A stretch of DNA of 37,476 bases from Christensenella sp. UBA767 (GTDB taxonomy: Bacteria > Bacillota > Clostridia > Christensenellales > CAG-917). Below are positions 5,718 through 37,476 of the stretch, one piece after another (position 1 is the first letter of the stretch; each line of letters begins with the position of its first letter). Location of the stretch: NCBI GenBank assembly GCA_002297185.1, contig DBJV01000087.1:1-37476 (forward strand), read 5' to 3'. The notes beneath the pieces are model-generated. The model was not told the origin of the DNA and did no database searches. It saw only the letters and a program-made list of their open reading frames with translations. The translations under genes were made by a program, and so were the position numbers.

Positions 5718-5838
5718 ATTTTGACTTCCTAATATGCTATTGCCAAAAATATAGTAAAAAATCCATATTTAGCGTTGACATATAGGATATATTCCTATAA
5801 AATTAAAAATACATATGAGGTCAAAGGAGGATTTTATT

Positions 5839-9922: not shown

Positions 9923-9923
9923 T

Positions 9924-10388
9924 ATGACAAGGCGCGAAATAGCAGAGAATAACTTTGTCCAAGGTTACAGTTGCGCACAAGCCGTAGTGCTTGCTTTTTC
10001 GGACGTCACGGGCTTTGGCGGAGAACAAGCGTTACGTCTTAGTTCCTCGTTTGGCGGCGGTATGGGCAGACTTCGAGAAGTATGCGGCGCAGTCAGCGGC
10101 ATGTTTATCGTCGAAGGGCTGTTGGAAGGGTACGATTATCCCGACAAGCCCGATGCAAAGCAGCAAAAAGCCGCCCACTACGCACGCATCCAAGAACTTG
10201 CACAGCGTTTTAAACAAATCAACGGCTCAATCGTATGCCGTGAGATTTTGGGCGCACGCGCAACCACTTCGCCCGTCCCCGATGACCGCACTCCCGAGTA
10301 TTACAAAACGAGACCGTGCGCCAAAATGTGCGGTGACGCCGCCGAAGTCCTCGAAACCTTCCTCCGCGAGCGCGGAATAATAGAGTAA
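9924..10388 (+). CDS. C_GCAxxG_C_C family protein (putative redox-active)
   Basis: GYSCAQAVVLAF matches the C-GCAxxG-C-C signature, and C-terminal Cys residues are present. The ATG at 9924 lies 1 nt after the mrp stop. The longer ORF-track start at 9891 overlaps mrp and is less likely. Confidence 0.7.
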   Translation: MTRREIAENNFVQGYSCAQAVVLAFSDVTGFGGEQALRLSSSFGGGMGRLREVCGAVSGMFIVEGLLEGYDYPDKPDAKQQKAAHYARIQELAQRFKQINGSIVCREILGARATTSPVPDDRTPEYYKTRPCAKMCGDAAEVLETFLRERGIIE

Positions 10389-10494: not shown

Positions 10495-10649
10495 TTGCGC
10501 TATGCGCAAATATCACTGTTGCAACGCAACAATATCACTTTTTGCGTAGCAAAAAATATCACTTGTGCGTAGCACAAATATCACTGCGCCTACGGCGCAA
10601 TATCACTCACATAAAGTGCTAAAAAGCACTTTATGCGTTGATAAACGCA
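10495..10649 (+). repeat. Hairpin array 1: five units of [5-6 bp stem / 3-nt loop hairpin + AATATCACT], followed by an 11-bp and a 6-bp hairpin
   Basis: AATATCACT starts at 10509, 10531, 10555, 10577 and 10599 (spacing 22/24/22/22). The hairpins are TTGCGC-TAT-GCGCAA, GTTGC-AAC-GCAAC, TTTTGC-GTA-GCAAAA, TGTGC-GTA-GCACA and GCGCC-TAC-GGCGC, followed by CATAAAGTGCT-AAAA-AGCACTTTATG and TGCGTT-GATA-AACGCA. Confidence 0.85.
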
Positions 10650-11661: not shown

Positions 11662-11828
11662 TTTTCACCAACTATTTTGTGTAATGATATTCTTATTATT
11701 AGGCATTACTTAATCAAAAACTGCAAAATTAGGCACAGCCTAACAAAATGTGACTTGACTTATTGAGAATATATGAATATACTTTTATTAGCATTTATTT
11801 AATGCGTTTGACAAAAAGGGGAAGAAAC

Positions 11829-13061
11829 ATGAAGAAAAAACTTATAATACCATTTATTTTTGTACTTTTGATTTCGGTTATATTGCTGGTTTCATGCGAT
11901 AAATCGCCAGATGACGGACAAACAGGCGTGCAAAAGCCCAGCGGCACGCAAATTTTTTCCGATAGTTTTAGCATAGACAACGACAAATTATATGTGAAAG
12001 TATCCAATGATACCGAAGTTTTTTCATTCAACGATGCCGTTATAGTTGCAGATGATGCCGATTTTATTGTATCAACTGATATTAGAGCATCTCAAATTAT
12101 AGAAAGTAGGACTGTAAATGTTGAAATCGGAGATAATACGTTTTATGTGTTGGTTAAAAACGGAAATTCTCGGAAACTCTATATGGCTGTTATCAGACGT
12201 AAGCCGTTATATACGGTGAAATTTGATACGATGAGTAGTGCTAAAATCGATGACCAAATCGTTGAGGAAGATGCGTTTTCTATAGAGCCTTTTGCAGTCG
12301 AGAAAGAAGGGGCTGTTTTTGTAGGGTGGGATTATGATTTCAGCAAGCCTATAACTAAAGATATAACAGTTGAGGCGATGTGGGAATATATGACATACAA
12401 TATTACGTATATAACAGATGACTATAATTCTACAATCTGGGATATTAGTGATTATAATACAACGTTTCAATTGAATGATGAAAATGCCGTTGCGTTTCCA
12501 ACTCCGAAGGGCGAAGGAGTATTTTGTGGTTGGTATTTAAATGACAAAAATGGGAAATGTGTAGGTAATACTTCGCAAGTTGGGAAGGGCAAAGATATAA
12601 CAGTATATGCCTTGTTTGACAGAGATGCAAAAGGTTCGTTTTTCATGAGTTCCTACGAGAAGGGGGCGGTTATTGGGTGGATACCGGATGAAAACGGTGA
12701 GGTGTCATTCCCGAAAAAATGGTTTGGCGAAGAAATTGTGAGTATTATGCCAGAGAACATCGAAGAAATAAAAGGTACAAAAACAATGCGAATACCTGAA
12801 ACAGTTAAAACCATATTGGAGGGGTTATTTCAATATACCCCTGAAATAGAAACCCTTATAATTGATTCGAAAGAACTTAATTTGGATGATACAAATGCGA
12901 TTAGATACATTATTGTATCATTTTCCCCTATAAAAGTTGTTGAAACCATTTATATTAGAAGTGATGCCAATGTGTATGATATAATAAAAGATATTTATAC
13001 GGCAGTAATATCGGATAAAGATAATTATATAAAATATCAATATATTGATAAAACCAATTGA
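11829..13061 (+). CDS. Lipoprotein with two Listeria-Bacteroides (Flg_new-type) repeats and a C-terminal LRR-like region
   Basis: The ATG at 11829 gives MKKKLIIPFIFVLLISVILLVSC-DK (lipobox LVSC). The repeats are YTVKFD...GAVFVGWDYDFSKPITKDITVEAMW and YNITY...GVFCGWYLND...GKDITVYALF. AT-rich. Confidence 0.75.
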   Translation: MKKKLIIPFIFVLLISVILLVSCDKSPDDGQTGVQKPSGTQIFSDSFSIDNDKLYVKVSNDTEVFSFNDAVIVADDADFIVSTDIRASQIIESRTVNVEIGDNTFYVLVKNGNSRKLYMAVIRRKPLYTVKFDTMSSAKIDDQIVEEDAFSIEPFAVEKEGAVFVGWDYDFSKPITKDITVEAMWEYMTYNITYITDDYNSTIWDISDYNTTFQLNDENAVAFPTPKGEGVFCGWYLNDKNGKCVGNTSQVGKGKDITVYALFDRDAKGSFFMSSYEKGAVIGWIPDENGEVSFPKKWFGEEIVSIMPENIEEIKGTKTMRIPETVKTILEGLFQYTPEIETLIIDSKELNLDDTNAIRYIIVSFSPIKVVETIYIRSDANVYDIIKDIYTAVISDKDNYIKYQYIDKTN

Positions 13062-13079
13062 TTAATAGGAGGAGTAATT

Positions 13080-13550
13080 ATGACAACGCAAGTAAGCAAA
13101 ACATTTTCTTTTCAAAAAAGTGATATCTTTGAAGGCGTAAATTATGTCGATATGATAAATCACGCATTAGGCACGCAATACAAAGGTTGGTTTAAGGCAA
13201 GTGTATTGCTTAAAAATATGGGGCTAAAAGACCATATGGCGTGGTTTGTATTTATCAACGAAGAAACACACGGATACGCCCATTGGGCATGGCAAAATAC
13301 AATCACGAAAGACGGAACGATAACCGAAACTTGTGTAAAGGATACGACTGATAAATTCAAAAACGACACAACTCGATATCCCAAGTACCGTCTTGTATTC
13401 CAAAGAGATCCAGATAATGACGGTAGCGTATATAAATGTAAATTTCTCGGAATATGTGAGCGCATCAGTGTTGACAACGATGAGAAAAGTCGCACGCATA
13501 AGCTAATTAGAGACAGCATTGAATGGAGTGGGAAATATGAGCAAAAATAG
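13080..13550 (+). CDS. Hypothetical protein (156 aa), no family recognised
   Basis: Strong RBS AGGAGG 6 nt upstream of the ATG. Trp-rich (GWFKA, MAWFVF, HWAWQN) with a motif RLVFQRDPDNDGSVYKCKFLGI that is reminiscent of, but not assignable to, PUA/EVE-like folds. Confidence 0.6.
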   Translation: MTTQVSKTFSFQKSDIFEGVNYVDMINHALGTQYKGWFKASVLLKNMGLKDHMAWFVFINEETHGYAHWAWQNTITKDGTITETCVKDTTDKFKNDTTRYPKYRLVFQRDPDNDGSVYKCKFLGICERISVDNDEKSRTHKLIRDSIEWSGKYEQK

Positions 13551-26547: not shown

Positions 26548-29085
26548 ATGAGTTTGATTTCAAAAATAGTCAATTTGTTCTCGCCGACCGCACAAAAGAC
26601 GGGGGCAGGGGACAACAATAAAATGGCGGTTACGTCAAAGCCGATGAGAGATACTGCTCGCGCGCTTGCGGCGGAGGGTATCGTATTGCTCAAAAACGAG
26701 GGCGTTTTGCCAATAAAAGAGAGCGACGAAGTGGCTGTGTTCGGGCGCACGCAATACAATTATTTTTGCGTGGGTTACGGCTCGGGCGGCGACGTGAAAG
26801 CGCCCTACAAAATGAGTTTTGCGGACGGACTTAAGGTTTGCGACAAGATAAAGGTAAACGAGTATCTTGACAAGATTTATGCCGAGTGGTGCGAAAAGCA
26901 CGTTCCCGACGAGGGATTTTGGGGGCATTGGCCGTTTTGTTTTGAGGAAATGCCGCTAACTTCCGATATCGTCCAAAAGGCAAGAGAGACGAGCAATATC
27001 GCAATCGTCGTGATTGGCAGAGCCGCTGGCGAGGACAGAGAGCAAAAGTTGAAGGGCGGAAGTTTTCTTCTCAGCGACGACGAGCTTAAGATGATTGACC
27101 TTGTGCGCAAATACTTTGAAAAGGTGGTGCTTGTTCTCGACACGGGCAACGTCATCGAATTTGACGATATAGAAATATTCGGAGACGATATATCCGCCGT
27201 GGTGCTTGCTTGGCAGGGCGGTATGGAAAGCGGAAACGCGCTTTGCGACGTGCTTTGCGGAAAGGTCAATCCCTCGGGAAGGCTTACGGACAGCATTGCG
27301 AGAAGGTATATTTTCTATCCGTCGGCAAGCGAGTTCGGACACAAAAAATACAACAATTACGTTGAAGATATATTCGTCGGATACAGATATTTTGAGTCCT
27401 TTGCGAAAAACGAAGTGTTGTATCCCTTCGGCTTTGGACTCTCATATACGACTTTCGATATAAGCGCAACTCTCGAAAAAGTGGCGGACGGAGTGAAGAT
27501 TGTCGCAACCGTAAAAAACGTGGGTAGCGTTGCAGGAAAAACCGTCGTGCAAGCGTACGTGCGCGCGCCGCAAAACGTTATGGTCAAACCTACAAGAGAA
27601 CTAAAAACGTTTGCAAAAACCAAACTTCTCGAACCAAACGAAGAGCAGACGATTGAGATGTGTATAGACGAGTACGCCTTGTCATCTTACGACGACGAGG
27701 GGCTTACGGGGTACAAAGCGTGCTGGGTGATGGAGGACGGCGAATACGAATTTTTTGTCGGCGAAAACGTGCGAGACGCAGCGAGTATAGGCAGTGTGCG
27801 CTTTGATAAAAAGGCAACCAAAGAATGCCACACGGCGTGTGCGCCAAAATACGATTTGACGGTGCTTGAGAGTTATGACAGCCTCCTCAACAGCGCGGAA
27901 GATTATGCGCAACTGATGAAGTATAACACGCTTGCGGACTTCCAATCCGACGTGTATAAAATGGACGCAGACGACGCCGAAGTGTACCTCAACAAGTTTG
28001 AAAATATGATAAAGGCGCATGAGTGGAAATGCACTCAAAAGCATGCGCAAACGGGCTATCTCAAAGAGCGTATAGAACGCAATATGCCGACGGAGATTGC
28101 GCAAAACAAGGACTTAAAGATATCGTTTGATGACGTTAAACGTGGGATTGTGACGGTTGACGAGTTTATATCCACGCTGTCGGACGAGGACTTGGAGACG
28201 CTTTGCCACGGCGATTTGAGAATGAACAGTTCGCTCGGGGCGAAAGGAAATGCAGGCGCGTTCGGCGGTATAAGCGACAGTCTCAAAACAAAGGGCGTGC
28301 CGTGCGCAATCACTACGGACGGACCTAGTGGAATAAGGCTTTGCGCAAAGGCGTCGTTGCTGCCTTGCGGCAGCGCGATTGCGTCGTCTTGGAATGAGGA
28401 ACTTGCTCAAAAGTTGTATTCGCTCGTCGCGCTCGAAATGAAAGAAAAGGGTTCGGATGTGCTTTTGGCACCCGGGATAAACATACATCGCAACGTGCTT
28501 TGCGGAAGAAACTTCGAATACTTGTCGGAAGATCCATATCTTACGGGCAAGATGGCAAGCGCAATCGTGAGAGGCATACAAGCGGAGGGCGGAGCGAGTT
28601 GCGTAAAGCATTTTGCTTGCAACAATCAAGAGAAGGCACGATATATAAATGATTCGCGCGTGAGCGAGCGCGCGCTGCGCGAGATATACCTCAAAGGATT
28701 TGAAATCTGCGTGAAAGAGGCAAATCCCAAAGCGATTATGACTTCCTACAACAAAATTAACGGGGTGTATTCCTACCATAATTACGACCTTTGCACGACT
28801 ATTTTGCGAGGCGAGTGGGGATATAAGAATCTCGTTATGACAGACTGGTGGACGAGGAAGGCAAAGAATCCCGACTTCAAGGGGGTTGACGACAATGCGT
28901 ACAGGGTGCGCGCGCAGGTGGACGTGCTTATGCCCGGCGGCTCGAGAGTGAGAGGCAAGTACGACGGCTCGACGCTCAAATCGCTAAAGAGGGGCGGACT
29001 TAAACGCGCGGAACTGCAACGTACCGCAAGAAACGTGCTTAACTTCCTTTTGAGCATCGACAAGAGTGAGGGCGAAGAGGAATAA
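26548..29085 (+). CDS. Glycoside hydrolase family 3 (beta-glucosidase/xylosidase-like) with permuted domain order
   Basis: The N-terminal part resembles the GH3 C-terminal alpha/beta sandwich (VLLKNEGVLPI, IVVIGRAAGEDRE, WQGGMESGNALCDVLCGKVNPSGRL). An Fn3-like region follows (LYPFGFGLSYTTF, VKNVGSVAGKTVVQAYV). The (beta/alpha)8 catalytic domain is at the C-terminus (KHFACNNQE, MTSYNKINGVY, NLVMTDWW with the nucleophile Asp). ATG 26548 (RBS AGAGGG) is preferred over TTG 26539. Confidence 0.8.
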   Translation: MSLISKIVNLFSPTAQKTGAGDNNKMAVTSKPMRDTARALAAEGIVLLKNEGVLPIKESDEVAVFGRTQYNYFCVGYGSGGDVKAPYKMSFADGLKVCDKIKVNEYLDKIYAEWCEKHVPDEGFWGHWPFCFEEMPLTSDIVQKARETSNIAIVVIGRAAGEDREQKLKGGSFLLSDDELKMIDLVRKYFEKVVLVLDTGNVIEFDDIEIFGDDISAVVLAWQGGMESGNALCDVLCGKVNPSGRLTDSIARRYIFYPSASEFGHKKYNNYVEDIFVGYRYFESFAKNEVLYPFGFGLSYTTFDISATLEKVADGVKIVATVKNVGSVAGKTVVQAYVRAPQNVMVKPTRELKTFAKTKLLEPNEEQTIEMCIDEYALSSYDDEGLTGYKACWVMEDGEYEFFVGENVRDAASIGSVRFDKKATKECHTACAPKYDLTVLESYDSLLNSAEDYAQLMKYNTLADFQSDVYKMDADDAEVYLNKFENMIKAHEWKCTQKHAQTGYLKERIERNMPTEIAQNKDLKISFDDVKRGIVTVDEFISTLSDEDLETLCHGDLRMNSSLGAKGNAGAFGGISDSLKTKGVPCAITTDGPSGIRLCAKASLLPCGSAIASSWNEELAQKLYSLVALEMKEKGSDVLLAPGINIHRNVLCGRNFEYLSEDPYLTGKMASAIVRGIQAEGGASCVKHFACNNQEKARYINDSRVSERALREIYLKGFEICVKEANPKAIMTSYNKINGVYSYHNYDLCTTILRGEWGYKNLVMTDWWTRKAKNPDFKGVDDNAYRVRAQVDVLMPGGSRVRGKYDGSTLKSLKRGGLKRAELQRTARNVLNFLLSIDKSEGEEE

Positions 29086-29170
29086 AGACAAAGAATACAA
29101 TAATCATACAACTACGATAAATTGTCTTGAAATTTGTATGTTTTTTCCTGAAAATATACGTGCAAACGGC

Positions 29171-29199
29171 TTGACACGAAATGCGTGTGTAGATATAAT
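29171..29199 (+). promoter_or_regulatory. Consensus sigma-A type promoter of adhE
   Basis: TTGACA (29171-29176), 17-nt spacer, TATAAT (29194-29199). Confidence 0.75.
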
Positions 29200-29203
29200 T
29201 ATA

Positions 29204-29250
29204 TCGATAAATAGTTATCGAATATTTAACCTAAAATAATCGATAACTCA
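29204..29250 (+). promoter_or_regulatory. Candidate operator: inverted repeat TCGATAA-N4-TTATCGA plus a third ATCGATAA half-site in the adhE leader
   Basis: The inverted repeat lies at 29204-29221, immediately downstream of the -10 box. ATCGATAAC repeats at 29239-29247. Confidence 0.5.
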
Positions 29251-29285
29251 AAAATTTGACAAACACGTATAGGAGAGAACAAGAA

Positions 29286-31901
29286 ATGGAAGCAAGAAAC
29301 CGTATTGTTGACGGAGTCGAAAAACTCGAAGAGGCTATCGCAGCCGTGCGCAAAGCTCAAAGAGAATATGCGACCTACACGCAAGAGCAAGTGGATAAAA
29401 TCTTTTTTGCAGCTGCAACCGCGGCAAACAAAATGAGAATACCTCTTGCAAAACTCGCAGTCGAAGAGACGGGCATGGGCATCGTCGAGGACAAGGTTAT
29501 CAAAAACCACTATGCGTCCGAATATATCTACAATGCCTACAAGAACACCAAGACTTGCGGAATAATCGAAGAGGACAAGGCTTACGGCACTATCAAGATC
29601 GCAGAGCCTCTCGGAATTATCGGCGCGGTTATCCCCACAACGAACCCGACCTCTACCGCAATCTTTAAGACGCTCATTGCTCTTAAGACGAGAAACGGCA
29701 TCATCATCAGCCCGCACCCCAGAGCGAAGAAATCCACCATTGCGGCGGCAAAAGTCGTACTCGAGGCGGCAGTTGAGGCAGGCGCACCCGAAAACATCAT
29801 TGATTGGATTGATATCCCCAGCCTCGAAATGACAAACCTTCTTATGAAAGAGTCGGATATCATTTTGGCAACGGGCGGTCCCGGTATGGTCAAAGCGGCG
29901 TATTCCAGCGGAAAGCCGGCACTCGGCGTTGGCGCAGGCAATACTCCTGCAATCATCGACGATACGGCAGACGTGGTGCTTGCGGTGAACTCCATTATCC
30001 ACTCCAAGACGTTTGACAACGGTATGATTTGCGCAAGCGAACAATCCGTTATCGTACTTGACAATGTATATAAAGCGGCAAAGAAAGAATTTGCAGACAG
30101 AGGTTGCTACTTCCTCAATCCCGAAGAGACGGAGAAGGTGCGTAAGACAATCCTCATCAACGGCGCACTCAATGCAAAAATCGTCGGACAAAAGCCCGTT
30201 ACGATTGCGAAACTTGCAGGATTCGACGTGCCGGAAAAAACGAAAATCCTTATCGGCGAAGTGGAAAGCGTCGATATCAGCGAAGAATTCGCACACGAAA
30301 AACTCTCACCGGTGCTTGCGATGTACAAAGCCAAAGACATTCAGGACGCATTCAATAAAGCAGAGCGTCTCGTTGCCGACGGCGGATACGGACATACGTC
30401 CTCTATTTATCTCAACGCCGTGACCGAAAGAGCAAAAATCGACGAATTTGCGTCAAGAATGAAAACTTGCCGTATCCTCGTCAACACTCCGTCCTCACAA
30501 GGCGGTATCGGAGACTTGTACAACTTCAAACTTACGCCGTCGCTCACGCTCGGCTGCGGTTCGTGGGGTGGTAACTCCGTATCCGAAAACGTCGGCGTCA
30601 AACATTTGCTCAATATCAAAACGGTTGCCCAAAGGAGAGAAAATATGCTATGGTTCAGAGCGCCTCAAAAGGTGTATATGAAGAAGGGTTGCTTGCCCGT
30701 TGCTCTTGACGAACTCAAACACGTTATGGGCAAAAAGAAAGCGTTTATCGTTACAGACAGTTTCTTGTATAACAACGGATATACAAAGCCCATCACGGAC
30801 AAACTCGACGAAATGGGCATCCAACACACCACGTTCTTTGACGTCGCTCCCGACCCGACGCTTGCTTGCGCAAAAGAAGGCGCAGCACAAATGGCGGCGT
30901 TCAAGCCCGATTGCATCATCGCACTCGGCGGCGGCAGCGCAATGGACGCAGGTAAGATTATGTGGGTGATGTACGAACATCCCGAAGTTGACTTCCTCGA
31001 TATGGCAATGCGCTTTATGGATATCAGAAAGCGTGTTTATACCTTCCCCAAGATGGGCGAGAAAGCGTACTTCATCGCAATCCCGACTTCTGCAGGTACA
31101 GGCTCCGAAGTTACTCCGTTTGCGGTTATCACGGACGAGAAAACGGGCGTTAAGTATCCGCTTGCGGACTACGAACTCTTGCCGAACATGGCAATCATCG
31201 ACGCAGACTTCCATATGAGCGCACCGAAAGGTCTTACGGCAGCCAGCGGTATCGACGCAGTTACGCACGACCTCGAGGCAATTGCGGCAATGCTCGCAAC
31301 GGACTATACGGACGGTCTTGCAATGCGTTCGCTCAAGATGATATTCGAATACTTGCCCAGAGCTTACGACAACGGTCCCAACGACCCCGTCGCAAGAGAG
31401 AAAATGGCAAATGCGGCAACTATGGCAGGTATGGCGTTTGCAAACGCATTCCTCGGCGTATGCCACTCTATGGCACACAAACTCGGTGCGTTCCATCACC
31501 TTCCGCACGGCGTAGCCAATGCGCTTATGATTGACGAAGTGTTGCGCTTTAACGCTTGCGAAACTCCCGTCAAGATGGGTACTTTCCCGCAATACGGATA
31601 TCCGCACACGCTCGCAAGATACGCAGAAGTTGCAGATTATCTCGGAATCAAAGGCAAGAACGACAACGAAAAACTTGAAAACCTTATCAAAGCCATCGAC
31701 GAATTGAAGGCAAGAGTTGGTATCAAGCCGACCATCAGAGATTACGTCCCCGACGAACAAGACTTCCTCAATCGTCTCGACGCTATGGTGGAGCAAGCCT
31801 TTGACGATCAATGCACGGGCGCAAACCCGAGATATCCGCTTATGAGCGAAATCAAACAAATGTATCTCAACGCCTACTACGGCACACATACAGAGGTATA
31901 A
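29286..31901 (+). CDS. adhE: Bifunctional acetaldehyde-CoA / alcohol dehydrogenase
   Basis: 871 aa from the ATG at 29286 (RBS AGGAGAG). An N-terminal ALDH domain (catalytic-Cys context FDNGMICASEQS) and a C-terminal iron-ADH domain (GGGSAMDAGK, HSMAHKLGAFHHLPHG). Confidence 0.95.
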   Translation: MEARNRIVDGVEKLEEAIAAVRKAQREYATYTQEQVDKIFFAAATAANKMRIPLAKLAVEETGMGIVEDKVIKNHYASEYIYNAYKNTKTCGIIEEDKAYGTIKIAEPLGIIGAVIPTTNPTSTAIFKTLIALKTRNGIIISPHPRAKKSTIAAAKVVLEAAVEAGAPENIIDWIDIPSLEMTNLLMKESDIILATGGPGMVKAAYSSGKPALGVGAGNTPAIIDDTADVVLAVNSIIHSKTFDNGMICASEQSVIVLDNVYKAAKKEFADRGCYFLNPEETEKVRKTILINGALNAKIVGQKPVTIAKLAGFDVPEKTKILIGEVESVDISEEFAHEKLSPVLAMYKAKDIQDAFNKAERLVADGGYGHTSSIYLNAVTERAKIDEFASRMKTCRILVNTPSSQGGIGDLYNFKLTPSLTLGCGSWGGNSVSENVGVKHLLNIKTVAQRRENMLWFRAPQKVYMKKGCLPVALDELKHVMGKKKAFIVTDSFLYNNGYTKPITDKLDEMGIQHTTFFDVAPDPTLACAKEGAAQMAAFKPDCIIALGGGSAMDAGKIMWVMYEHPEVDFLDMAMRFMDIRKRVYTFPKMGEKAYFIAIPTSAGTGSEVTPFAVITDEKTGVKYPLADYELLPNMAIIDADFHMSAPKGLTAASGIDAVTHDLEAIAAMLATDYTDGLAMRSLKMIFEYLPRAYDNGPNDPVAREKMANAATMAGMAFANAFLGVCHSMAHKLGAFHHLPHGVANALMIDEVLRFNACETPVKMGTFPQYGYPHTLARYAEVADYLGIKGKNDNEKLENLIKAIDELKARVGIKPTIRDYVPDEQDFLNRLDAMVEQAFDDQCTGANPRYPLMSEIKQMYLNAYYGTHTEV

Positions 31902-31911
31902 GGAGGAGAAT

Positions 31912-32661
31912 ATGAATCTCGACAGAATTATTGCCGTGAGAACCAACAAGACCGTTTATCGCGACGGCGAGCATTGCGTAAAGGTGTTCGACGAGGATTT
32001 TTCCAAAGTCGATGTCCTTAACGAGGCTCTTAACCAAGCGAGAGTGGAAGAGACGGGACTCAACGTGCCTAAAATCATCGAAGTTACCAAAGTCAACGGC
32101 AAATGGGCTATCGTATCCGAGTTTATCGGCGGAAAGACGCTCGACAGACTTATGAAAGACAACCCTGAAAAGAAAGACGAGTATCTTGAAAGATTCGTGG
32201 ATTTGCAAATAGAAGTGCAATCCAAAAAATGCCCGTTGCTTACCAAACTTCGCGACAAGATGAACAGAAAAATCAACTTGACGAATTTGGACGACAGCAT
32301 TAAATACGAGTTGCACACTCGCCTCGAGGGTATGCCAAAGCACGACAAGTTGTGCCACGGCGACTTCAACCCGTCCAATATCATTATCACGGGCGACGAC
32401 GAGGCTTACGTCATCGACTGGTCGCACGCAACTCAAGGCAATGCGTCTGCGGACGTTGCGAGAACTTATATGCTTTTCTGGCTTGACGGCGAAATCGATA
32501 TGGCTGAAAAATATCTCGATTTGTTCTGCAAAAAGAGCGGAACGGACAAGAGATATGTCCAAAAATGGATGCCTATCGTTGCGGCGTCGCAATCGGTAAA
32601 AGGTCACGAAAAAGAAAGAGAATTCCTTATGTCTTGGATTGACGTGGCGGAGTTCCAATAA
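31912..32661 (+). CDS. APH/choline-kinase-fold phosphotransferase (protein-kinase-like), substrate unknown
   Basis: 249 aa. Begins 10 nt after the adhE stop, behind AGGAGGAG. Lys motif HCVKVF, catalytic loop LCHGDFNPSNIII (HxDxxxxN) and metal loop VIDWSHA. Confidence 0.7.
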   Translation: MNLDRIIAVRTNKTVYRDGEHCVKVFDEDFSKVDVLNEALNQARVEETGLNVPKIIEVTKVNGKWAIVSEFIGGKTLDRLMKDNPEKKDEYLERFVDLQIEVQSKKCPLLTKLRDKMNRKINLTNLDDSIKYELHTRLEGMPKHDKLCHGDFNPSNIIITGDDEAYVIDWSHATQGNASADVARTYMLFWLDGEIDMAEKYLDLFCKKSGTDKRYVQKWMPIVAASQSVKGHEKEREFLMSWIDVAEFQ

Positions 32662-32681
32662 TAAACGAGAGGGAATAAATT

Positions 32682-32921
32682 ATGAAAGTTACAGTGTGTA
32701 TCGGCAGTTCCTGCCACATCAAAGGATCGAGACAAGTCGTCGAACAATTGCAATATCTCATCGCTCAAAACAACCTCAAAGAAAAGGTTGAACTCGGCGG
32801 AACGTTTTGTATGGGTAAGTGCCAACAAGGCGTTTGCGTGACGGTTGACGATGCGTTCTTCTCGCTCACTCCCGACACTACCAAAGAATTCTTTGAAAAA
32901 GAAATACTTGCAAAGGCGTAA
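32682..32921 (+). CDS. Thioredoxin-like [2Fe-2S] ferredoxin domain protein (79 aa)
   Basis: CIGSSC (Cx4C) and CMGKC (Cx3C), the NuoE/HndA-type pattern. Confidence 0.65.
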   Translation: MKVTVCIGSSCHIKGSRQVVEQLQYLIAQNNLKEKVELGGTFCMGKCQQGVCVTVDDAFFSLTPDTTKEFFEKEILAKA

Positions 32922-32925
32922 GGAT

Positions 32926-33189
32926 ATGGTTATAATACAGATTTGTGTCGGCAGTTCCTGTCATCTCAAAGGCTCGCAGGAAATCGTGGAGTTGCTACGC
33001 AAGGAAATTGCGCAGAGAAATCTCGAAGGCGACGTCGTGCTTACGGGCAGTTTCTGTTTCGGAAAATGCAACAGGGTTGGCGTGACGGTGGCTGTCGATG
33101 ACGATATATATCCCGGAATTACCATTGAGAATTTCCAAGAATTCTTCAAGGATAAAGTCTTGTCTCGCATAGAGGCAGGCAGGAGTTGA
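32926..33189 (+). CDS. Thioredoxin-like [2Fe-2S] ferredoxin domain protein (87 aa), tandem paralogue
   Basis: The ATG at 32926 lies 4 nt after the previous stop. CVGSSC and CFGKC have the same spacing as the neighbour. Confidence 0.65.
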   Translation: MVIIQICVGSSCHLKGSQEIVELLRKEIAQRNLEGDVVLTGSFCFGKCNRVGVTVAVDDDIYPGITIENFQEFFKDKVLSRIEAGRS

Positions 33190-33190
33190 T

Positions 33191-34864
33191 ATGGATTGTC
33201 TTACTCTGAAAAAGTCAAACTGTAAGAACTGTTACAAGTGCATCCGACATTGCCCGGTTAAAGCTATACGCTTTTCGGGCAATCAGGCGCACATCATAGG
33301 CAATGAGTGCATTTTATGCGGTCATTGCTTTGTCGTTTGTCCCCAAAACGCAAAAGAGATTGCAAGCGAAGTGGAAAAGGTCAAGGTGCTTATCCATTCG
33401 GGCGAACCCGTTTACGTGTCGCTTGCTCCGTCCTTCGTGGCAAACTACGAGGGCGTGGGAATAGGCGCAATGAGAGATGCTCTCAAAAAACTCGGATTTG
33501 CCGACGTCGAGGAAACCGCAATCGGCGCGACGATGGTCAAAAACGAGTACGAGAGAATGATTGAGAAGGAAAAGAGAGACGTTATTATTTCCTCTTGCTG
33601 CCACTCGATCAATTTGCTCATTCAAAAATATTTCCCGTCGCTTTTGCCGTACCTTGCCGACGTTATGTCGCCTATGCAAGCGCATTGCGCGGATATCAAA
33701 AAGAGATATCCGGGCGCAAAGACCGTGTTTATCGGTCCGTGCGTTGCAAAGAAGGACGAGGCACAGCACTATGAGGGAATAGTTGACGCGGTTTTGACTT
33801 ATGAAGAGTTGACGGAATGGCTTTCCTCTGAAGGTATCGAACTCAAAAAAGAGATGGATAGCAACAGAGAAAGCAGAGCGAGATTCTTCCCCACGACGGG
33901 CGGGATTCTCAAAACTATGAAACTCAATCAACCCGGTTACGATTATATGGCAATCGACGGCGTTGAGAATTGTATTGCCGCTCTCAAAGACATAGAGCAA
34001 GGCAACATTCACCACACGTTCATAGAAATGTCGTCGTGCGTGGGCAGTTGCGTGGGCGGCCCCGTTATGGAAAAATATCATCCCTCGCCCGTGAGAGAGT
34101 ATCTTGCGGTGGCGAAATATGCAGGGGATAAGGACTTCAAGGTGGAGCAACCCAACCAAGAAGACATAAGAAAATATTTCTCCGAAATTGAAAGAAAGAA
34201 TCAAGTTCCCACCGAGGCGGAAATCGCTGCGACGTTGCGAAAAATGGGCAAGATAAGCAAACGCGACGAACTCAATTGCGGAAGTTGCGGATACAACACT
34301 TGCCGTGAAAAAGCAATTGCGATTTTGCAAGGCAAAGCGGAAGTGTCCATGTGCTTGCCGTACCTTCAAAAGAAGGCGGAAGGATTCTCGGACAGAATCG
34401 TCAACAACACGCCAAACGGCATCATCGTGCTTAACGACGCTTTTGAAGTGCAACAGATAAATCAGGCGGCGATGGATCTTATGAATATCCGTTCCGCAAC
34501 CGACGTTCTCGGCGAGCAAGTGGTGCGTATTATGGATCCGCAAGTTTTCCTCGAAGTGAAGAAAACGAGGTTTAACGTGCGCAATCGCAGGGTTTATCTT
34601 GCGGAATATAAAAGATACGTGGAACTTACGGTTGTTTATGACTTCGACAATCGCCTCTATATCGGCATCATGAGAGATATCACCGACGAGGAAAAACAGA
34701 AAGAGAAAAAGGAGTCTATAAGCAGACAAACCATAGAGACGGCAGACAAAGTCGTTGACAAGCAAATGCGTATCGTGCAGGAGATTGCGTCCCTTTTGGG
34801 CGAGACTGCTGCCGAAACCAAGATTGCTTTGACCAAACTCAAGGAGTCCATCAAAGATGAATGA
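33191..34864 (+). CDS. hydS: Sensory-type [FeFe] hydrogenase homologue with PAS domain (HydS / HfsB-like, group C)
   Basis: N-terminal 2x[4Fe-4S] ferredoxin motifs (CKNCYKCIRHCP, CILCGHCFVVCP). H-domain motifs SSCCHS, GPCVAKKDE and EMSSCVGSCVGGP. An extra CGSCGYNTC-x16-C (Cx2Cx4Cx16C). A C-terminal PAS-like region (NTPNGIIVLNDAFEVQQINQAAMDLMNI). Confidence 0.8.
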   Translation: MDCLTLKKSNCKNCYKCIRHCPVKAIRFSGNQAHIIGNECILCGHCFVVCPQNAKEIASEVEKVKVLIHSGEPVYVSLAPSFVANYEGVGIGAMRDALKKLGFADVEETAIGATMVKNEYERMIEKEKRDVIISSCCHSINLLIQKYFPSLLPYLADVMSPMQAHCADIKKRYPGAKTVFIGPCVAKKDEAQHYEGIVDAVLTYEELTEWLSSEGIELKKEMDSNRESRARFFPTTGGILKTMKLNQPGYDYMAIDGVENCIAALKDIEQGNIHHTFIEMSSCVGSCVGGPVMEKYHPSPVREYLAVAKYAGDKDFKVEQPNQEDIRKYFSEIERKNQVPTEAEIAATLRKMGKISKRDELNCGSCGYNTCREKAIAILQGKAEVSMCLPYLQKKAEGFSDRIVNNTPNGIIVLNDAFEVQQINQAAMDLMNIRSATDVLGEQVVRIMDPQVFLEVKKTRFNVRNRRVYLAEYKRYVELTVVYDFDNRLYIGIMRDITDEEKQKEKKESISRQTIETADKVVDKQMRIVQEIASLLGETAAETKIALTKLKESIKDE

Positions 34865-36029
34865 TTTGTGCGCCGATATCGGTTATAAAAGTATAAATCA
34901 CTTCGGCGAGCAATTGTGCGGCGACCACGTGGATATCGTCAATCAAGACGAAAATTCCACGGTTATCGTGCTTGCGGACGGCTTGGGGAGCGGCGTTAAG
35001 GCGAGCATTCTTTCCACGCTTACGAGCAAAATCATCTCGACGATGATGGCGGAGGGGCTTACCCTCGAAGATTGCGTGGAGACGATTGCCGCAACTTTGC
35101 CCATATGTTCGGTGAGAGGCGTTGCGTATTCGACGTTTACAATCGTGCATATCGTAAACAACAGAGACGCGGAGATTATCCAGTACGACAATCCGCAAGT
35201 CATACTTTTGCGTGACGGACAAAATTACGATTTCCCCAAAACCGAAATGGTGATTGGCGGAAAGAAGATTTTTAAATCCGTCGTGCCGCTTATGGAGAAC
35301 GATATTTTCATTCTTATGAGCGACGGTTGTCCGCATGCGGGGCTTGGGCTTTCCTACAACTTCGGTTGGAAGAGAGAGGACATCATATCCTTTATGGAGA
35401 GCATAAGCCTTGTGGGATACACCGCAAAGACGCTTTCCACGATTTTGGTGGACGAGTGCAACAAACTTTACGGCGAAAAACCCGGCGACGACGCTACGGC
35501 GTGCGTTATCAGAATACGTAAGCGCGAGCCTATGAATATTTTGTTCGGGCCGCCGTCAAATCGCGACGATTGCGACAGAATGATGTCCTTGTTCTTCTCA
35601 AAAGAGGGCAAGCATATCGTGTGCGGAGGCACGACGTCGTCTATCGCCGCAAAATACCTCGGAAAACAATTGCGGACGACGCTCAACTTCGAGTCGTCGG
35701 ACGTTCCGCCGATATCCGAAATCGAGGGCGTGGATCTCGTTACGGAAGGCGTTATAACGATGAACAAAGTGCTTACTTACGCAAAGGATTATCTCGAAGA
35801 TAACGAAAGCTACGAGCAATGGAGTTTCAAGCGCGACGGTGCGTCGCTTATGTCGAGATTGCTCTTCGAAGAGGCTACGGATATCAATTTCTTTGTGGGA
35901 AGAGCCATCAACCCTGCGCACCAAAACCCCGATTTGCCCATCAATTTCAGCATCAAAATGAACCTCGTAAAAGAACTTAGCGAGTGCCTTATTAAGATGG
36001 GTAAGCGAGTTAAGGTGAGTTATTTCTAA
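34857..36029 (+). CDS. PP2C/SpoIIE-family protein phosphatase with an uncharacterised C-terminal domain
   Basis: The ATG overlaps the hydS stop by 8 nt. GDHVDIV...VIVLADGLGSGVKAS...ILMSDGCPHAG are PP2C metal-binding motifs. About 170 C-terminal residues have no motif I recognise. Confidence 0.75.
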   Translation: MNDLCADIGYKSINHFGEQLCGDHVDIVNQDENSTVIVLADGLGSGVKASILSTLTSKIISTMMAEGLTLEDCVETIAATLPICSVRGVAYSTFTIVHIVNNRDAEIIQYDNPQVILLRDGQNYDFPKTEMVIGGKKIFKSVVPLMENDIFILMSDGCPHAGLGLSYNFGWKREDIISFMESISLVGYTAKTLSTILVDECNKLYGEKPGDDATACVIRIRKREPMNILFGPPSNRDDCDRMMSLFFSKEGKHIVCGGTTSSIAAKYLGKQLRTTLNFESSDVPPISEIEGVDLVTEGVITMNKVLTYAKDYLEDNESYEQWSFKRDGASLMSRLLFEEATDINFFVGRAINPAHQNPDLPINFSIKMNLVKELSECLIKMGKRVKVSYF

Positions 36030-36068
36030 AAAAGTAGCAAAAAATTGCAAAAACAGGCACAAAAAGAA

Positions 36069-36096
36069 TTGTTTTGAGTGTGTTTTGGTATATAAT
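36069..36096 (+). promoter_or_regulatory. Possible promoter of the downstream hydrogenase gene
   Basis: TTGTTT (36069-36074), 16-nt spacer, TATAAT (36091-36096). The RBS GAAGGTG precedes the ATG at 36122. Confidence 0.4.
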
Positions 36097-36121
36097 ACGG
36101 CAAGACAAAAGAAGGTGCAGA

Positions 36122-37476
36122 ATGAGAATATTCGATACAAAAGTTCAACACTTGAAATACAAAGTATTGCGTGAGGTCGCTCGCGAGGCGTGGGAAGATA
36201 GGCTGGATAAGACCGCTATAGACATCCCCAAAAAGATTGTCCCCGGAAAAGTGCCGACCATGCGTTGCTGCGTGTATAAAGAGCGTGCAATTTTGCTTGA
36301 ACGCGTCAAACTCGCGATGGGCGGAGATAAGGAAAATCCAAACGTCATCGAGGTTATCGACATCGCTTGCGACGAGTGTCCGATGGGCGGATACGAAGTT
36401 ACGGGCGCATGCAGAGGCTGTCTTGCTCATAGATGCGAGGACGTGTGTAAATTCGGCGCAATTACGTTCGACGCGCAACACGTGGCGCATATCGACAAGT
36501 CCAAGTGCAAAGAGTGCGGCGCGTGCGCAAAGGTATGCCCGTACAGCGCAATCACCAATAATAAACGTCCCTGCGAGAGAGCGTGCAAGGTCAAGGCTAT
36601 CACGATGGATGAGGAATACGCCGCAAAAATCGACAATTCCAAGTGCATTGCGTGCGGCGCTTGCGTGTATCAATGCCCGTGGGGTGCGATTTCCGATAAA
36701 TCCTATATCCTCGACGTTATCGACTTGATAAAGAAGAGCGAGAATAACACCAAGTACAAACTTTACGCGGTCGTTGCGCCGTCTATATCGAGCCAGTTTA
36801 CCTACGCAAAACTCGGTCAGGTTATTACGGGACTTAAAAAACTCGGTTTCTATACCGTAATCGAGGCGGCTCTCGGCGCAGATATGGTTGCGCTTGCAGA
36901 AGGCAAAGAGTTGGCGGAAAAAGGTTTCCTCACAAGTTCGTGCTGCCCGGCGTTCGTGGCATACATCAAAAAGAATTTCCCCGCACTTCAACAACACGTG
37001 TCGGGCAATCTCTCGCCGATGGCTACACTTGCTAAATACATCAAGGACACCACTCCCGACGCAAAAGTCGTGTTTATCGGTCCTTGCACCGCAAAGAAAA
37101 TGGAAATCAAGGACGAAAGAGTCAAACCTTACGTCGATTCCGTCCTCACTTTCGAGGAATTGCAAGCGCTTTTCGACAGCAGAGACTTCGATATCACCAC
37201 GCTCGAAGAAGGAGTGCTTGACAATGCGTCCTACTTCGGAAGAATATTCGCTCGTAGCGGCGGTTTGAGCGATGCCGTAAGACAATCGCTCAAAGAGCAA
37301 AACATCGATTTCGACCTCAAGCCCTGCTCTTGCGACGGCATAGAAGAGTGCAAAATCGCGCTCCTCAAAAAGAGCAAAAATCTCCTCGACGCCAACTTTA
37401 TCGAGGGTATGGCTTGCACCGGCGGTTGCATCGGCGGCGCAGGTTGTCTCACTCACGGCGAGAAGAACAAAGCCGA
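36122..37476 (+). CDS. [FeFe] hydrogenase, catalytic type with multiple N-terminal Fe-S motifs (partial; runs off the window end)
   Basis: Not in the ORF track because there is no stop before the window end. My own translation is MRIFDTKVQHLKYKVLREVAREAWEDRLD... It contains Cys clusters CKECGACAKVCP and CIACGACVYQCP, and H-cluster motifs TSSCCP, GPCTAKKME and EGMACTGGCIGG. The 476-aa minus-strand ORF opposite is a shadow. Confidence 0.85.
   Translation, partial: MRIFDTKVQHLKYKVLREVAREAWEDRLDKTAIDIPKKIVPGKVPTMRCCVYKERAILLERVKLAMGGDKENPNVIEVIDIACDECPMGGYEVTGACRGCLAHRCEDVCKFGAITFDAQHVAHIDKSKCKECGACAKVCPYSAITNNKRPCERACKVKAITMDEEYAAKIDNSKCIACGACVYQCPWGAISDKSYILDVIDLIKKSENNTKYKLYAVVAPSISSQFTYAKLGQVITGLKKLGFYTVIEAALGADMVALAEGKELAEKGFLTSSCCPAFVAYIKKNFPALQQHVSGNLSPMATLAKYIKDTTPDAKVVFIGPCTAKKMEIKDERVKPYVDSVLTFEELQALFDSRDFDITTLEEGVLDNASYFGRIFARSGGLSDAVRQSLKEQNIDFDLKPCSCDGIEECKIALLKKSKNLLDANFIEGMACTGGCIGGAGCLTHGEKNKA

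Follow-up and report, generated by a model that had tools for sequence, protein, structure and literature searches.

A probable H2-responsive ethanol and hydrogenase cluster in Christensenella sp. UBA767 with the gene order of a Ruminococcus albus 7 plasmid locus

The seven-gene cluster at the end of the window (the whole 37,476-nt stretch of Christensenella sp. UBA767 DNA analysed here) is the orthologue of the rex-adhE-kinase-Fdx-Fdx-hydS-PP2C-hydA2 cluster of Ruminococcus albus 7 and, at a probability that we put at about 0.6, represents a 'high-H2' fermentation branch that carries its own sensor and feeds back on the operon promoter. This reading is supported by the identical order of the seven shared genes and the 62-78% identity of all seven proteins, and by the reported 111-fold repression of the eight-gene R. 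albus cluster when an H2 consumer is grown alongside (Greening et al. 2019; PMC6776011), HydS having been proposed as the sensor in R. albus (PMC6776011).

In the proposed mechanism, AdhE would dispose of NADH as ethanol and the group-B hydrogenase of reduced ferredoxin as H2, while HydS, its H-cluster in equilibrium with H2, would exchange electrons with both small [2Fe-2S] ferredoxins. The PAS domain would relay the H-cluster state to the PP2C, presumably translationally coupled to HydS, and the PP2C and the APH-fold protein (a kinase or a nucleotide-dependent partner) would set the phosphorylation state of a regulator acting on the operon promoter. For this role the adjacent Rex and/or LysR are the candidates in most relatives, and an unlinked repressor that binds TCGATAA-N4-TTATCGA would fill it in the window. 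As a net effect, the operon would be on at high H2 or reducing pressure and off once H2 is removed.

Gene order, transcription signals and conservation

All seven genes lie codirectionally on the + strand, from 29286 to the window end at 37476 (Table 1). Profile searches bore out the gene identities and operon-like layout of the initial annotation, with every domain assignment holding and only the PAS match under its cutoff. AdhE scored 1388 bits against NF010378 (cutoff 951) and contains the Aldedh and Fe-ADH Pfam domains. The junctions adhE/kinase/Fdx/Fdx/hydS/PP2C/hydB, calculated from the coordinates, are +10, +20, +4, +1, -8 and +92 nt, all exactly as first read, and the scan found no + strand terminator-like site in any of them; the sole + strand match, at 36269, falls within hydB, and the overall number of matches is that expected from shuffling. 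The consensus boxes noted earlier ahead of adhE (TTGACA, 29171-29176; TATAAT, 29194-29199) form the only perfect promoter site in 28900-37476, and both are kept, with diverged flanks, in the window and in four other species-level genomes (L001 and L004-L006). The 12/12 promoter, the lack of terminators and the junctions of -8 to +20 nt support the reading of the cluster as a predicted operon.

Table 1. Coordinates of the features of the cluster in the window
Feature	Position	Strand	Basis or remark
Sigma-70 promoter TTGACA-17-TATAAT	29171..29199	+	12/12 match
Perfect palindrome TCGATAA-ATAG-TTATCGA	29204..29221	.	5 nt downstream of -10 box
Extra half-site TCGATAA, adhE leader	29240..29246	+	(AATC)GATAAC kept in five genomes
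adhE, bifunctional acetaldehyde-CoA/alcohol dehydrogenase, 871 aa	29286..31901	+	NF010378, Pfam
APH-fold kinase-like protein, 249 aa	31912..32661	+	PF01636
Thioredoxin-like [2Fe-2S] ferredoxin 1, 79 aa	32682..32921	+	PF01257, 33.6 bits vs cutoff 24.8
Thioredoxin-like [2Fe-2S] ferredoxin 2, 87 aa	32926..33189	+	PF01257, 33.8 bits vs cutoff 24.8
HydS, sensory-type (group C) [FeFe] hydrogenase, 557 aa	33191..34864	+	Domains, motifs
PP2C/SpoIIE-type phosphatase	34857..36029	+	SpoIIE, 55.7 bits vs cutoff 25
PP2C C-terminal alpha/beta domain, residues 223-390	35523-36029	+	Strongly conserved
Internal promoter-like site TTGTTT-16-TATAAT before hydB	36069..36096	+	Conservation
hydB, group-B-type monomeric [FeFe] hydrogenase	36122..37476	+	TIGR04105

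The weaker promoter-like site seen earlier in the 92-nt gap before hydB (TTGTTT, 36069-36074; TATAAT, 36091-36096) scored under the threshold of the promoter scan, and its TTG and GGT(A/G)TATAAT are kept in the same four other genomes. The gap is only about 15 nt in most other orthologues. Judged by this conservation, hydB has an additional, conserved predicted promoter of its own in the window's lineage.

The neighbourhood census covered 80 species-level genomes, 72 decidable for the neighbours of the kinase gene and 65 for both flanks. The result showed that adhE is directly upstream of the kinase gene in 69/72 species, that hydS follows it in 62 of the 72, and that 54 of the 65 keep the full gene order, implying an arrangement far beyond chance and supporting the main reading. 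The linkage of adhE to the sensor module and the APH-fold partner had both been considered unusual, and a chance juxtaposition of adhE and kinase had been envisaged. None of these views is borne out: the pair is kept in nearly all decidable species, gene order and kinase family are shared with R. albus 7, and an APH-fold gene regularly opens the Fdx-Fdx-HydS-PP2C module, also in relatives at 36-45% identity. The layout, though real and conserved in many species, has already been described and is not new. Seven distant relatives have the core (rex)-kinase-Fdx-Fdx-hydS-PP2C without adhE, with rex directly ahead of the kinase gene in five. Intact adhE-kinase pairs without HydS/PP2C, followed by unrelated genes, occur in eight genomes and in Collinsella aerofaciens, of a different phylum.

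The APH-fold protein and the regulatory target

The APH-fold protein scored 57.7 bits against PF01636 (cutoff 23.2) and keeps all catalytic residues (K24, E38, H149-G150-D151, N156 and D169). The best folds for its AF2 model (pLDDT 96) were APH(3')-Ia, APH(4), choline kinase LicA and YtaA (TM 0.65-0.70, identity 14-17%), and its sequence matches are confined to the APH/choline kinase families. A match to a characterised small-molecule kinase clade, which had been raised as a possible objection, did not appear: no curated NCBIfam model, small-molecule kinase families included, was matched over its cutoff. The catalytic or metal-binding Asp is replaced in 16/58 diverse representatives of the kinase family, and the rex-linked member P0249 has HGE in place of the catalytic HGD.

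The initial annotation had envisaged a H2-gated kinase/phosphatase switch. The general idea of an H2-responsive module for the ethanol/H2 branch holds up and is essentially the hypothesis published for R. albus 7, but kinase and phosphatase may be something other than a simple antagonistic pair, since their distances do not co-vary (partial r = -0.23), a catalytic Asp is lost in many family members, and PP2C is about 76% identical across module types whose kinases share only 36%.

AdhE is the protein whose distances track those of the kinase most closely (r = 0.67, partial 0.42). It is possible, although unlikely, that the APH-fold protein serves AdhE specifically, as a kinase or AdhE-binding regulator that acts post-translationally, on activity or filament assembly, and is reversed by HydS-PP2C according to H2. 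This co-variation would fit such a role, as would the position of adhE immediately upstream, the pairs that lack HydS/PP2C, and the rise of ADH but not ALDH activity in hfsB mutants, for which post-transcriptional regulation was suggested (PMC5707799). However, the adjacency of the two genes confounds this co-variation, the closest structural matches are small-molecule kinases, and in the seven distant modules the kinase occurs with Fdx-HydS-PP2C, and rex, in the absence of adhE, so that adhE is a later insertion.

Somewhat less probable again is that the protein phosphorylates a small molecule or is a nucleotide-binding sensor subunit without catalytic activity, the PP2C substrate being phosphorylated by something else. 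The resemblance in structure to aminoglycoside, hygromycin and choline kinases, the restricted sequence matches, the Asp replacements and the divergence of kinases beside a conserved PP2C are consistent with this, but the window protein has lost none of the catalytic residues, scores below every curated small-molecule kinase cutoff, and is linked strictly to a protein phosphatase and a PAS sensor, not to metabolic pathway genes.

AdhE, the hydrogenase and a ferredoxin had been named as candidate phospho-targets. A transcription factor is at least as good a candidate, because most orthologous loci have a rex and/or lysR gene or a canonical Rex box (among 48 loci, rex directly upstream in 21, lysR in 32 and a canonical Rex box in 26) and rex precedes the kinase gene in most of the distant modules. 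Canonical Rex boxes were found at the equivalent position in 22/58 orthologous adhE leaders, with 0.3 expected.

In the window this position is occupied by a perfect palindrome with Rex-box geometry (7-4-7). It occurs in exact form only once in the window, with three-mismatch matches at chance level, and the block ATTATATCGATAAATAGTTATCGAAT is invariant across five species-level genomes. This footprint, together with a location just after the -10 box, where a bound repressor would block initiation, supports repressor control, and TCGATAA-N4-TTATCGA is a probable repressor operator. Two findings on the regulator count against the main reading: 4 of the 14 palindrome positions mismatch the Rex consensus TTGTTAAN4TTAACAA (10/14 agree), and neither rex nor lysR is present in the 37-kb window.

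HydS, the phosphatase and the second hydrogenase

HydS comprises two [4Fe-4S] clusters, an H-domain, a PF04060 Fe-S motif, a PAS domain and a C-terminal helix, with Pfam matches to Fer4, Fe_hyd_lg_C (178 bits) and PF04060 and a weak one to PAS_9 (22.8 bits, under the 27-bit cutoff). Alignment to solved hydrogenases showed SSCCHS (both Cys retained), GPC (M353 to G) and MSSC (M497 to S). The substitutions at M353 and M497 are the sensory-type signature (PMC10055695), and their presence supports a sensor role. The proton-relay Cys, which is Ala in TmHydS, is retained, so the window HydS may be more catalytic than TmHydS; this residue argues against the H2-sensor and feedback reading, as do the sub-cutoff PAS match and the persistence of adhE-kinase pairs without HydS/PP2C. 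Both ferredoxins have the Cys-x4-Cys...Cys-x3-Cys ligands (Cys6, 11, 43 and 47 in ferredoxin 1).

The last 8 nt of hydS are also the first 8 of the PP2C gene. This overlap is conserved and the HydS and PP2C distance matrices co-vary most strongly (r = 0.87), both in favour of the main reading. The phosphatase domain (residues 1-222; AF2 model of PP2C, pLDDT 81) has invariant metal-binding D41, D156 and D211/D212, and Foldseek placed it with SpoIIE/RsbU/RsbX; the C-terminal domain gave no Pfam match and no PDB sequence match.

The second hydrogenase, about 22 codons short at the window end (473 aa in close relatives; full length in L001), scored 573 bits against TIGR04105 (cutoff 450) and has the motifs TSSCCP, GPCTAKKME and EGMACTGGC. 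Earlier labelled 'catalytic-type', it is by sequence group-B-type, not classical group A, and an orthologue of R. albus HydA2 and HfsD. That HydS, the ferredoxins, PP2C and HydB form one multi-subunit active hydrogenase, with HydS a redox subunit and not a signal sensor, is very improbable: hfsABCD was first described so, as the main H2-producing hydrogenase of Thermoanaerobacterium saccharolyticum (PMC11837493), and the retained Cys and tight gene packing would fit, but hfsD alone suffices for the phenotype and hfsB deletion alters regulation without a growth effect (PMC11837493, PMC5707799), some HydS-PP2C modules precede bifurcating HydABC hydrogenases instead of HydB, hydB has its own predicted promoter, and HydS carries M353G/M497S.

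Comparison with known systems

The hfsABCD cluster of T. saccharolyticum and T. thermosaccharolyticum, genetically linked to ethanol yield (PMC11837493, PMC5707799), shares the core, as had been stated: HfsB is a PAS-bearing HydS, HfsC a PP2C and HfsD a ferredoxin-linked hydrogenase similar to HydA2. In this comparison, made by description only, HfsA is said to lack good matches and so is not obviously one of the small [2Fe-2S] ferredoxins, reports of hfs mention no APH-fold gene, and adhE, unlike in the window, is elsewhere in the genome. Deletion of hfsB in T. saccharolyticum raises adhE expression (PMC5707799), implying that the sign of regulation need not be alike everywhere. The biochemically characterised group C enzyme of Thermotoga maritima, TmHydS, shares the domain layout of the window HydS (Fe-S clusters, H-domain, PAS), and small residues replace M353 and M497 in both; the C299 position is Ala in TmHydS and Cys in the window. 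The rumen metagenome locus L086, an example of the rex-kinase-Fdx-Fdx-HydS-PP2C modules that precede bifurcating hydrogenases, has the same five-gene sensory core (HydS 68% and PP2C 76% identical to the window), but its output genes encode NuoE/NuoF-like HydC/HydB of a bifurcating HydABC-type hydrogenase instead of AdhE and HydB, and its kinase, whose start is overlapped by rex, is 36% identical and has HGE, not HGD.

RsbU/SpoIIE-type partner-switching likewise couples a SpoIIE/RsbU/RsbX-class PP2C to sensory input, although the cluster and the scanned ORFs of at least 150 aa contain no STAS antagonist, HATPase anti-sigma kinase, sigma factor, histidine kinase or response regulator, in keeping with the initial annotation. 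HoxBC-HoxJ-HoxA is also an H2 sensor controlling hydrogenase genes (PMC5707799), with an [NiFe] instead of an [FeFe] sensor. In the regulon of the NADH/NAD+-responsive repressor Rex, adhE is a classic target; the window shares its operator geometry and position relative to the promoter, with the mismatches and lack of rex given above.

New here in detail are the group-B-type second hydrogenase, the conserved PP2C C-terminal domain, the kinases without the catalytic Asp and the adhE-kinase pairs without HydS, as in Collinsella; particular to the window are the absence of rex/lysR, the footprinted palindrome and the conserved hydB promoter.

The closest system is on plasmid pRUMAL01 of R. albus 7 (RUMAL_RS17350-17385, rex-adhE-phosphotransferase-Fdx-Fdx-hydS-SpoIIE-hydA2), whose proteins are, in gene order, 78/66/78/62/69/77/76% identical to those of the window. 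R. albus HydA2 is the same group-B-type enzyme (TIGR04105, 577 bits), and hydS and PP2C overlap in both loci. The R. albus cluster is headed by rex, whereas the window has neither rex nor an upstream lysR; the putative palindromic operators differ, and the PP2C-hydrogenase gap is 16 nt in R. albus against 92 nt in the window. The window locus looks chromosomal, with a GH3 gene on one side and genes for aromatic amino acids on the other, while that of R. albus is on a megaplasmid. As cited in PMC5707799, Zheng et al. (2014) proposed the R. albus 7 unit as H2-sensing, the signal passing from the PAS domain to the Ser/Thr kinase next to it.

Layout and gene assignments of the cluster

Seven open reading frames lie on the same strand in the order adhE, a gene for an APH-fold kinase-like protein, two ferredoxin genes (fdx1 and fdx2), hydS, a gene for a PP2C/SpoIIE-type phosphatase and hydB, a second [FeFe] hydrogenase gene that is cut about 22 codons short of its end by the window edge. 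The junctions between them are +10, +20, +4, +1, −8 and +92 nt, and the promoter in front of adhE is the sole 12/12 promoter match in the cluster region. No terminator-like hairpin was found on the + strand in any junction, and the overall count of terminator-like sites equalled the shuffle expectation. The promoter, gene order, junction lengths and absence of terminators described in the initial annotation are all present in the sequence. The organization is operon-like, and the cluster is orthologous to that of R. albus 7.

Features of the cluster and of the remainder of the window
Feature	Position	Strand	Description
Low-GC stretch	5815-7914		36% GC vs ~46%
Rubrerythrin gene	8334-8918	−	
C_GCAxxG_C_C putative redox-active protein gene	9891-10388	+	
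Gut-1 RNA (Rfam)	10505-10586	−	
Low-GC stretch	11763-13550		36% GC vs ~46%
adhE promoter	29171-29199	+	TTGACA-17-TATAAT
Perfect palindrome	29204-29221		TCGATAA-ATAG-TTATCGA; 5 nt past the −10 box; sole exact copy in the window
PP2C C-terminal domain	35523-36029	+	residues 223-390; alpha/beta; strongly conserved
PP2C-hydB spacer	36030-36121		92 nt; promoter-like TTGTTT-16-TATAAT
hydB (to the window edge)	36122-37476	+	

HMM and profile searches confirmed every earlier gene assignment. The adhE product scored 1388 bits against NF010378 (cutoff 951) and has the Pfam ALDH and Fe-ADH fusion, which identifies it as an AdhE equivalog. Both small ferredoxins, of the thioredoxin-like [2Fe-2S] type, matched PF01257 (33.6 and 33.8 bits; cutoff 24.8), and the CxxxxC...CxxxC Cys ligands are present in each. 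HydS, a putative group C (sensory) [FeFe] hydrogenase, combines two [4Fe-4S] domains with an H-domain and the Fe-S motif PF04060, and its match to PAS is weak.

The phosphatase matched SpoIIE with 55.7 bits (cutoff 25), and its metal-binding Asp residues D41, D156 and D211/D212 do not vary in 14+34 PP2C homologues. Foldseek, run on a structure predicted with homologues of a PP2C from a Treponema MAG, returned SpoIIE, RsbU and RsbX (SpoIIE at E = 1e-14), the output for the full-length protein being dominated by the PP2C domain. The C-terminal domain carries the motifs CGGT(T/S)S, GxDLxTEGV, DGAS and VGxxxNxAHQ, and Pfam and PDB sequence searches gave no match for it. A weak likeness to the SIS (phosphosugar-binding) domain was not confirmed: a profile search against the PDB gave GmhA over 62 residues (E = 0.002), hhalign against E. 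coli GmhA gave 4% probability, and no Pfam SIS match was found in this domain. No STAS antagonist or HATPase kinase was found in the seven cluster proteins and 21 other scanned ORFs, in agreement with the earlier statement that no STAS or anti-sigma component lies nearby.

About 20 kb 5′ of the cluster, the rubrerythrin and C_GCAxxG_C_C protein genes are redox/oxidative-stress genes. The two low-GC stretches hold a 699-aa ORF that matches nothing in Pfam, together with genes for a Listeria-Bacteroides-repeat protein and for a small protein with an SRA (SET and RING associated) domain; they may be acquired DNA.

Distribution of the gene order among relatives

The kinase belongs to a very large family: at least 8000 matches came from a single search, 331 clusters at 50% identity were found below E = 1e-30, and at least 586 genomes of GTDB species representatives encode a relative. 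The gene-neighbourhood census, with a 13-sequence alignment as query, covered the best 80 of these at least 586 genomes (kinase identity 67-90%) and is therefore biased toward close relatives; these 80 came from Acutalibacteraceae, Oscillospiraceae and 'Clostridia' MAGs of gut and rumen. Among the best 80 of the at least 586 genomes, adhE lay directly 5′ of the kinase gene in 69 of 72 decidable cases and hydS lay 3′ of it in 62 of 72, the full gene order was present in 54 genomes, eight had only the adhE-kinase pair with unrelated genes downstream, and three had kinase-hydS without adhE. Within the same best 80 of at least 586, the census ruled out that adhE lies beside the sensor genes by chance, and the joining of adhE to the sensor module proved to be the usual state and not, as had been proposed, an unusual one.

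Collinsella aerofaciens (Actinomycetota; NZ_OY725717.1) has an adhE-kinase pair in which the kinase is 48% identical, the rest of the cluster being absent. Intact pairs with no ferredoxin, HydS, PP2C or hydrogenase genes nearby were observed at this locus (L085) and at the related loci L045, L053, L066, L069, L074, L078 and L079. One of these sensor-free pairs belongs to another phylum. The pairs show that the kinase-like gene is retained with adhE even where the sensor is missing.

Seven distant representatives of the kinase family (36-45% identity) were inspected one by one. All six with downstream sequence have a ferredoxin gene next and then hydS where the contig is long enough. The rex gene lies directly 5′ of the kinase gene in five of the seven, adhE is adjacent to it in none of the seven, and one module sits 5′ of a bifurcating HydABC-type hydrogenase. 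The content of these modules thus defines a conserved core, (rex)-kinase-Fdx-Fdx-HydS-PP2C. Judged by gene order, the APH-fold protein is a regular putative partner of the HydS sensor, and adhE and the group-B hydrogenase gene are the presumed output genes of one large clade. An APH-fold kinase partner had been thought unusual; the same kinase family partners the sensor in the distant modules too.

Regulatory DNA and the proposed response to H2

In the 48 orthologous loci whose upstream sequence is long enough, rex lies directly before adhE in 21, an upstream gene homologous to lysR of R. albus is present in 32, and a canonical Rex box (≤2 mismatches) lies 5′ of the first gene in 26. When adhE leaders alone were considered, a Rex box was present in 22 of 58, against 0.3 expected from shuffles. 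An R. albus-type LysR-family gene was observed upstream of adhE within the related loci L007-L082 and in R. albus 7 (L084), the window being without it; no lysR was found in the whole window. In the papers cited here, the LysR regulator is not discussed as part of the system. A tblastn search with three Rex sequences gave no match in the window, and the Rex operator TTGTTAAN4TTAACAA was not found there with ≤2 mismatches.

The palindrome downstream of the adhE promoter lies inside a 26-nt block with no differences between five species-level genomes (the window, L001 and L004-L006), the flanks of which diverge. It has the same 7-4-7 geometry and position as the Rex box and agrees with the Rex consensus at 10 of 14 positions, with four mismatches; a related variant, TCGATCA-N4-TTATCGA, lies 5′ of rex in the related locus L073. 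The candidate operator sequence at the adhE promoter is TCGATAAATAGTTATCGA. The palindrome is a putative repressor operator that may work like a Rex box, and its cognate repressor is possibly a divergent Rex. A riboswitch or other known RNA in the adhE leader was ruled out; the window's only Rfam match is the Gut-1 RNA elsewhere (score 52 bits, gathering threshold 50, E = 1.3e-07), which fits a gut-metagenome origin. The TTG and TATAAT of the promoter-like site in the PP2C-hydB spacer are kept in the same five genomes as the palindrome block. The long spacer with its kept site, compared with a junction of about 15 nt in most other orthologues, argues for a putative internal hydB promoter, which seems to be a speciality of the window's lineage.

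The region is most likely an H2/redox-responsive operon for a high-H2 fermentation branch. AdhE would be its sink for NADH, the group-B hydrogenase its sink for ferredoxin, and the operon would be autoregulated through HydS, PAS, PP2C and the APH-fold partner, a chain that would act on a transcription regulator binding beside the promoter. We infer this regulator as the target of the chain, and it is the weakest step of the mechanism.

An exploratory mirror-tree comparison of distance matrices was made over 44 complete loci; it is confounded by shared phylogeny and by adjacency, so the result is a pointer only. The strongest correlation among these 44 loci was that of HydS with PP2C (r = 0.87), and those of Fdx1 with HydS and PP2C came next (0.69-0.70). 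The best correlate of the kinase was AdhE (0.67, partial 0.42), and the value for kinase and PP2C, with the other proteins controlled for, was −0.23. Between adhE-type and rex-type modules, HydS is 68% and PP2C 76% identical, whereas the kinase falls to 36%. As a pointer only, these values suggest that Fdx, HydS and PP2C form one unit and that the kinase-like protein is a variable, output-side partner; a strongly co-evolving sensor trio may be separable from a fast-diverging kinase-like partner tracking either rex or adhE. That the APH-fold protein is a post-translational AdhE kinase, a reading for which the AdhE correlation speaks and against which the distant modules with no adjacent adhE speak, is rather unlikely. 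It is also doubtful that this protein is the HydS module's output adaptor, which would be a dedicated AdhE kinase in the adhE-linked clade, with the phosphate removed by PP2C (C-terminal domain and HydS PAS) in response to H2 and perhaps to a metabolite, and would act with the same scaffold on Rex in rex-linked clades. If this were true, H2 partial pressure would switch ethanol flux post-translationally.

The APH-fold protein matched PF01636 with 57.7 bits (cutoff 23.2), and its AF2 model (pLDDT 96) has a bilobal kinase fold, the nearest folds being APH(3′)-Ia, APH(4), LicA and YtaA (TM 0.65-0.70, 14-17% identity). Membership in a characterized small-molecule kinase clade (APH(3′), Mph, thiamine kinase, choline kinase or CotS) was rejected, as no curated NCBIfam or Pfam cutoff was reached; the best family scores were 64 bits for TIGR02172 (cutoff 228), 35 for APH_3p (205), 26 for thiK (299) and 21 for Choline_kinase (29). 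The R. albus orthologue is named a Ser/Thr kinase, on annotation grounds only, in PMC5707799. The window protein has the full Lys/Glu/HxD..N/D(F/W) catalytic set (K24, E38, D151, N156 and D169). In 16 of 58 diverse representatives of the family, the HGD catalytic Asp is replaced by N, E, G, H, C or S, or the IDW metal-binding Asp by G or N, and this is also seen in members that have kept their linkage to rex-Fdx-HydS-PP2C. Some of the family may lack catalytic activity; with the catalytic set of the window protein on one side and these replacements on the other, a non-protein-kinase or pseudokinase is unlikely here.

HydS scored 178 bits for Fe_hyd_lg_C, and its SSCC, GPC and CVGSC motifs align with those of CpI and HydA1, so that the H-cluster ligand Cys residues are present. 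In alignment with solved hydrogenases it carries the sensory-type replacements M353 → G and M497 → S, small residues at these positions being the criterion for sensory enzymes (PMC10055695). The hydB product matched TIGR04105 (monomeric, group B1-type) with 573 bits (cutoff 450) over model positions 1-461 of 462. A structural multi-subunit hydrogenase is very improbable, the least likely of the three rivals. Residues 400-500 of HydS, where a C-terminal PAS domain would be expected, gave weak, sub-cutoff PAS matches (PAS_9, 22.8 bits vs 27; PAS_8, 17.6 vs 21.8); an orthologue is described as PAS-bearing in PMC5707799. H2 sensing by HydS is putative and taken from the literature on orthologues.

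Comparison with the R. albus 7 cluster and other known systems

The type of cluster described here sets the split of fermenters' electrons between ethanol and H2, which bears on the rumen and gut H2 economy, methane output and biofuel strains. A tblastn search of plasmid records with the kinase found pRUMAL01 of R. albus 7 (66% identity), on which the annotated region encodes LysR, Rex and AdhE, followed by a phosphotransferase, a pair of (2Fe-2S) ferredoxins, a protein with an [Fe-Fe] hydrogenase domain, a SpoIIE phosphatase and a 4Fe-4S dicluster protein. The seven-gene order on one strand is identical, the window's identities being 78, 66, 78, 62, 69, 77 and 76%. In R. albus 7 the unit is headed by rex, whereas neither rex nor lysR was found in the window.

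As related in PMC5707799, HydS of R. albus was proposed (Zheng et al. 2014) to sense H2 and to signal via PAS to an adjacent Ser/Thr kinase. The R. albus 7 cluster was 111-fold down in co-culture with an H2 consumer (Greening et al., PMC6776011); low-H2 repression and co-transcription have been demonstrated for R. albus 7 only (PMC6776011). As its order and identities match this cluster, the locus re-discovers a published arrangement and hypothesis. The literature already contains the arrangement, its co-regulation and the H2-sensor hypothesis, and the window is a further member that adds no new principle. Particular to it are the lineage-specific regulatory DNA and the lack of linked rex or lysR. 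The value left lies in comparative details, namely the sensor-free adhE-kinase pairs, the frequent catalytic Asp loss, the PP2C C-terminal domain and the group-B output hydrogenase, which sharpen the question of the phospho-target and narrow the experiments needed.

HydS of Thermotoga maritima (TmHydS) has lost the proton-relay Cys (C299 of CpI), whereas the window HydS retains both Cys residues (SSCCHS); the C299-equivalent position varies among sensory enzymes (PMC10055695). HydA2 of R. albus, the orthologue of the hydB product, was labelled group A1 by Greening et al. (PMC6776011); here, by contrast, it (L084, 13130-14566) gave a group-B-type match to TIGR04105 with 577 bits, as did the window's hydB product, and a full-length relative scored 570 bits. 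The scores of both proteins with the group A model were far below cutoff. The layout seen in R. albus is the standard one in a very large set of Clostridia from gut and rumen.
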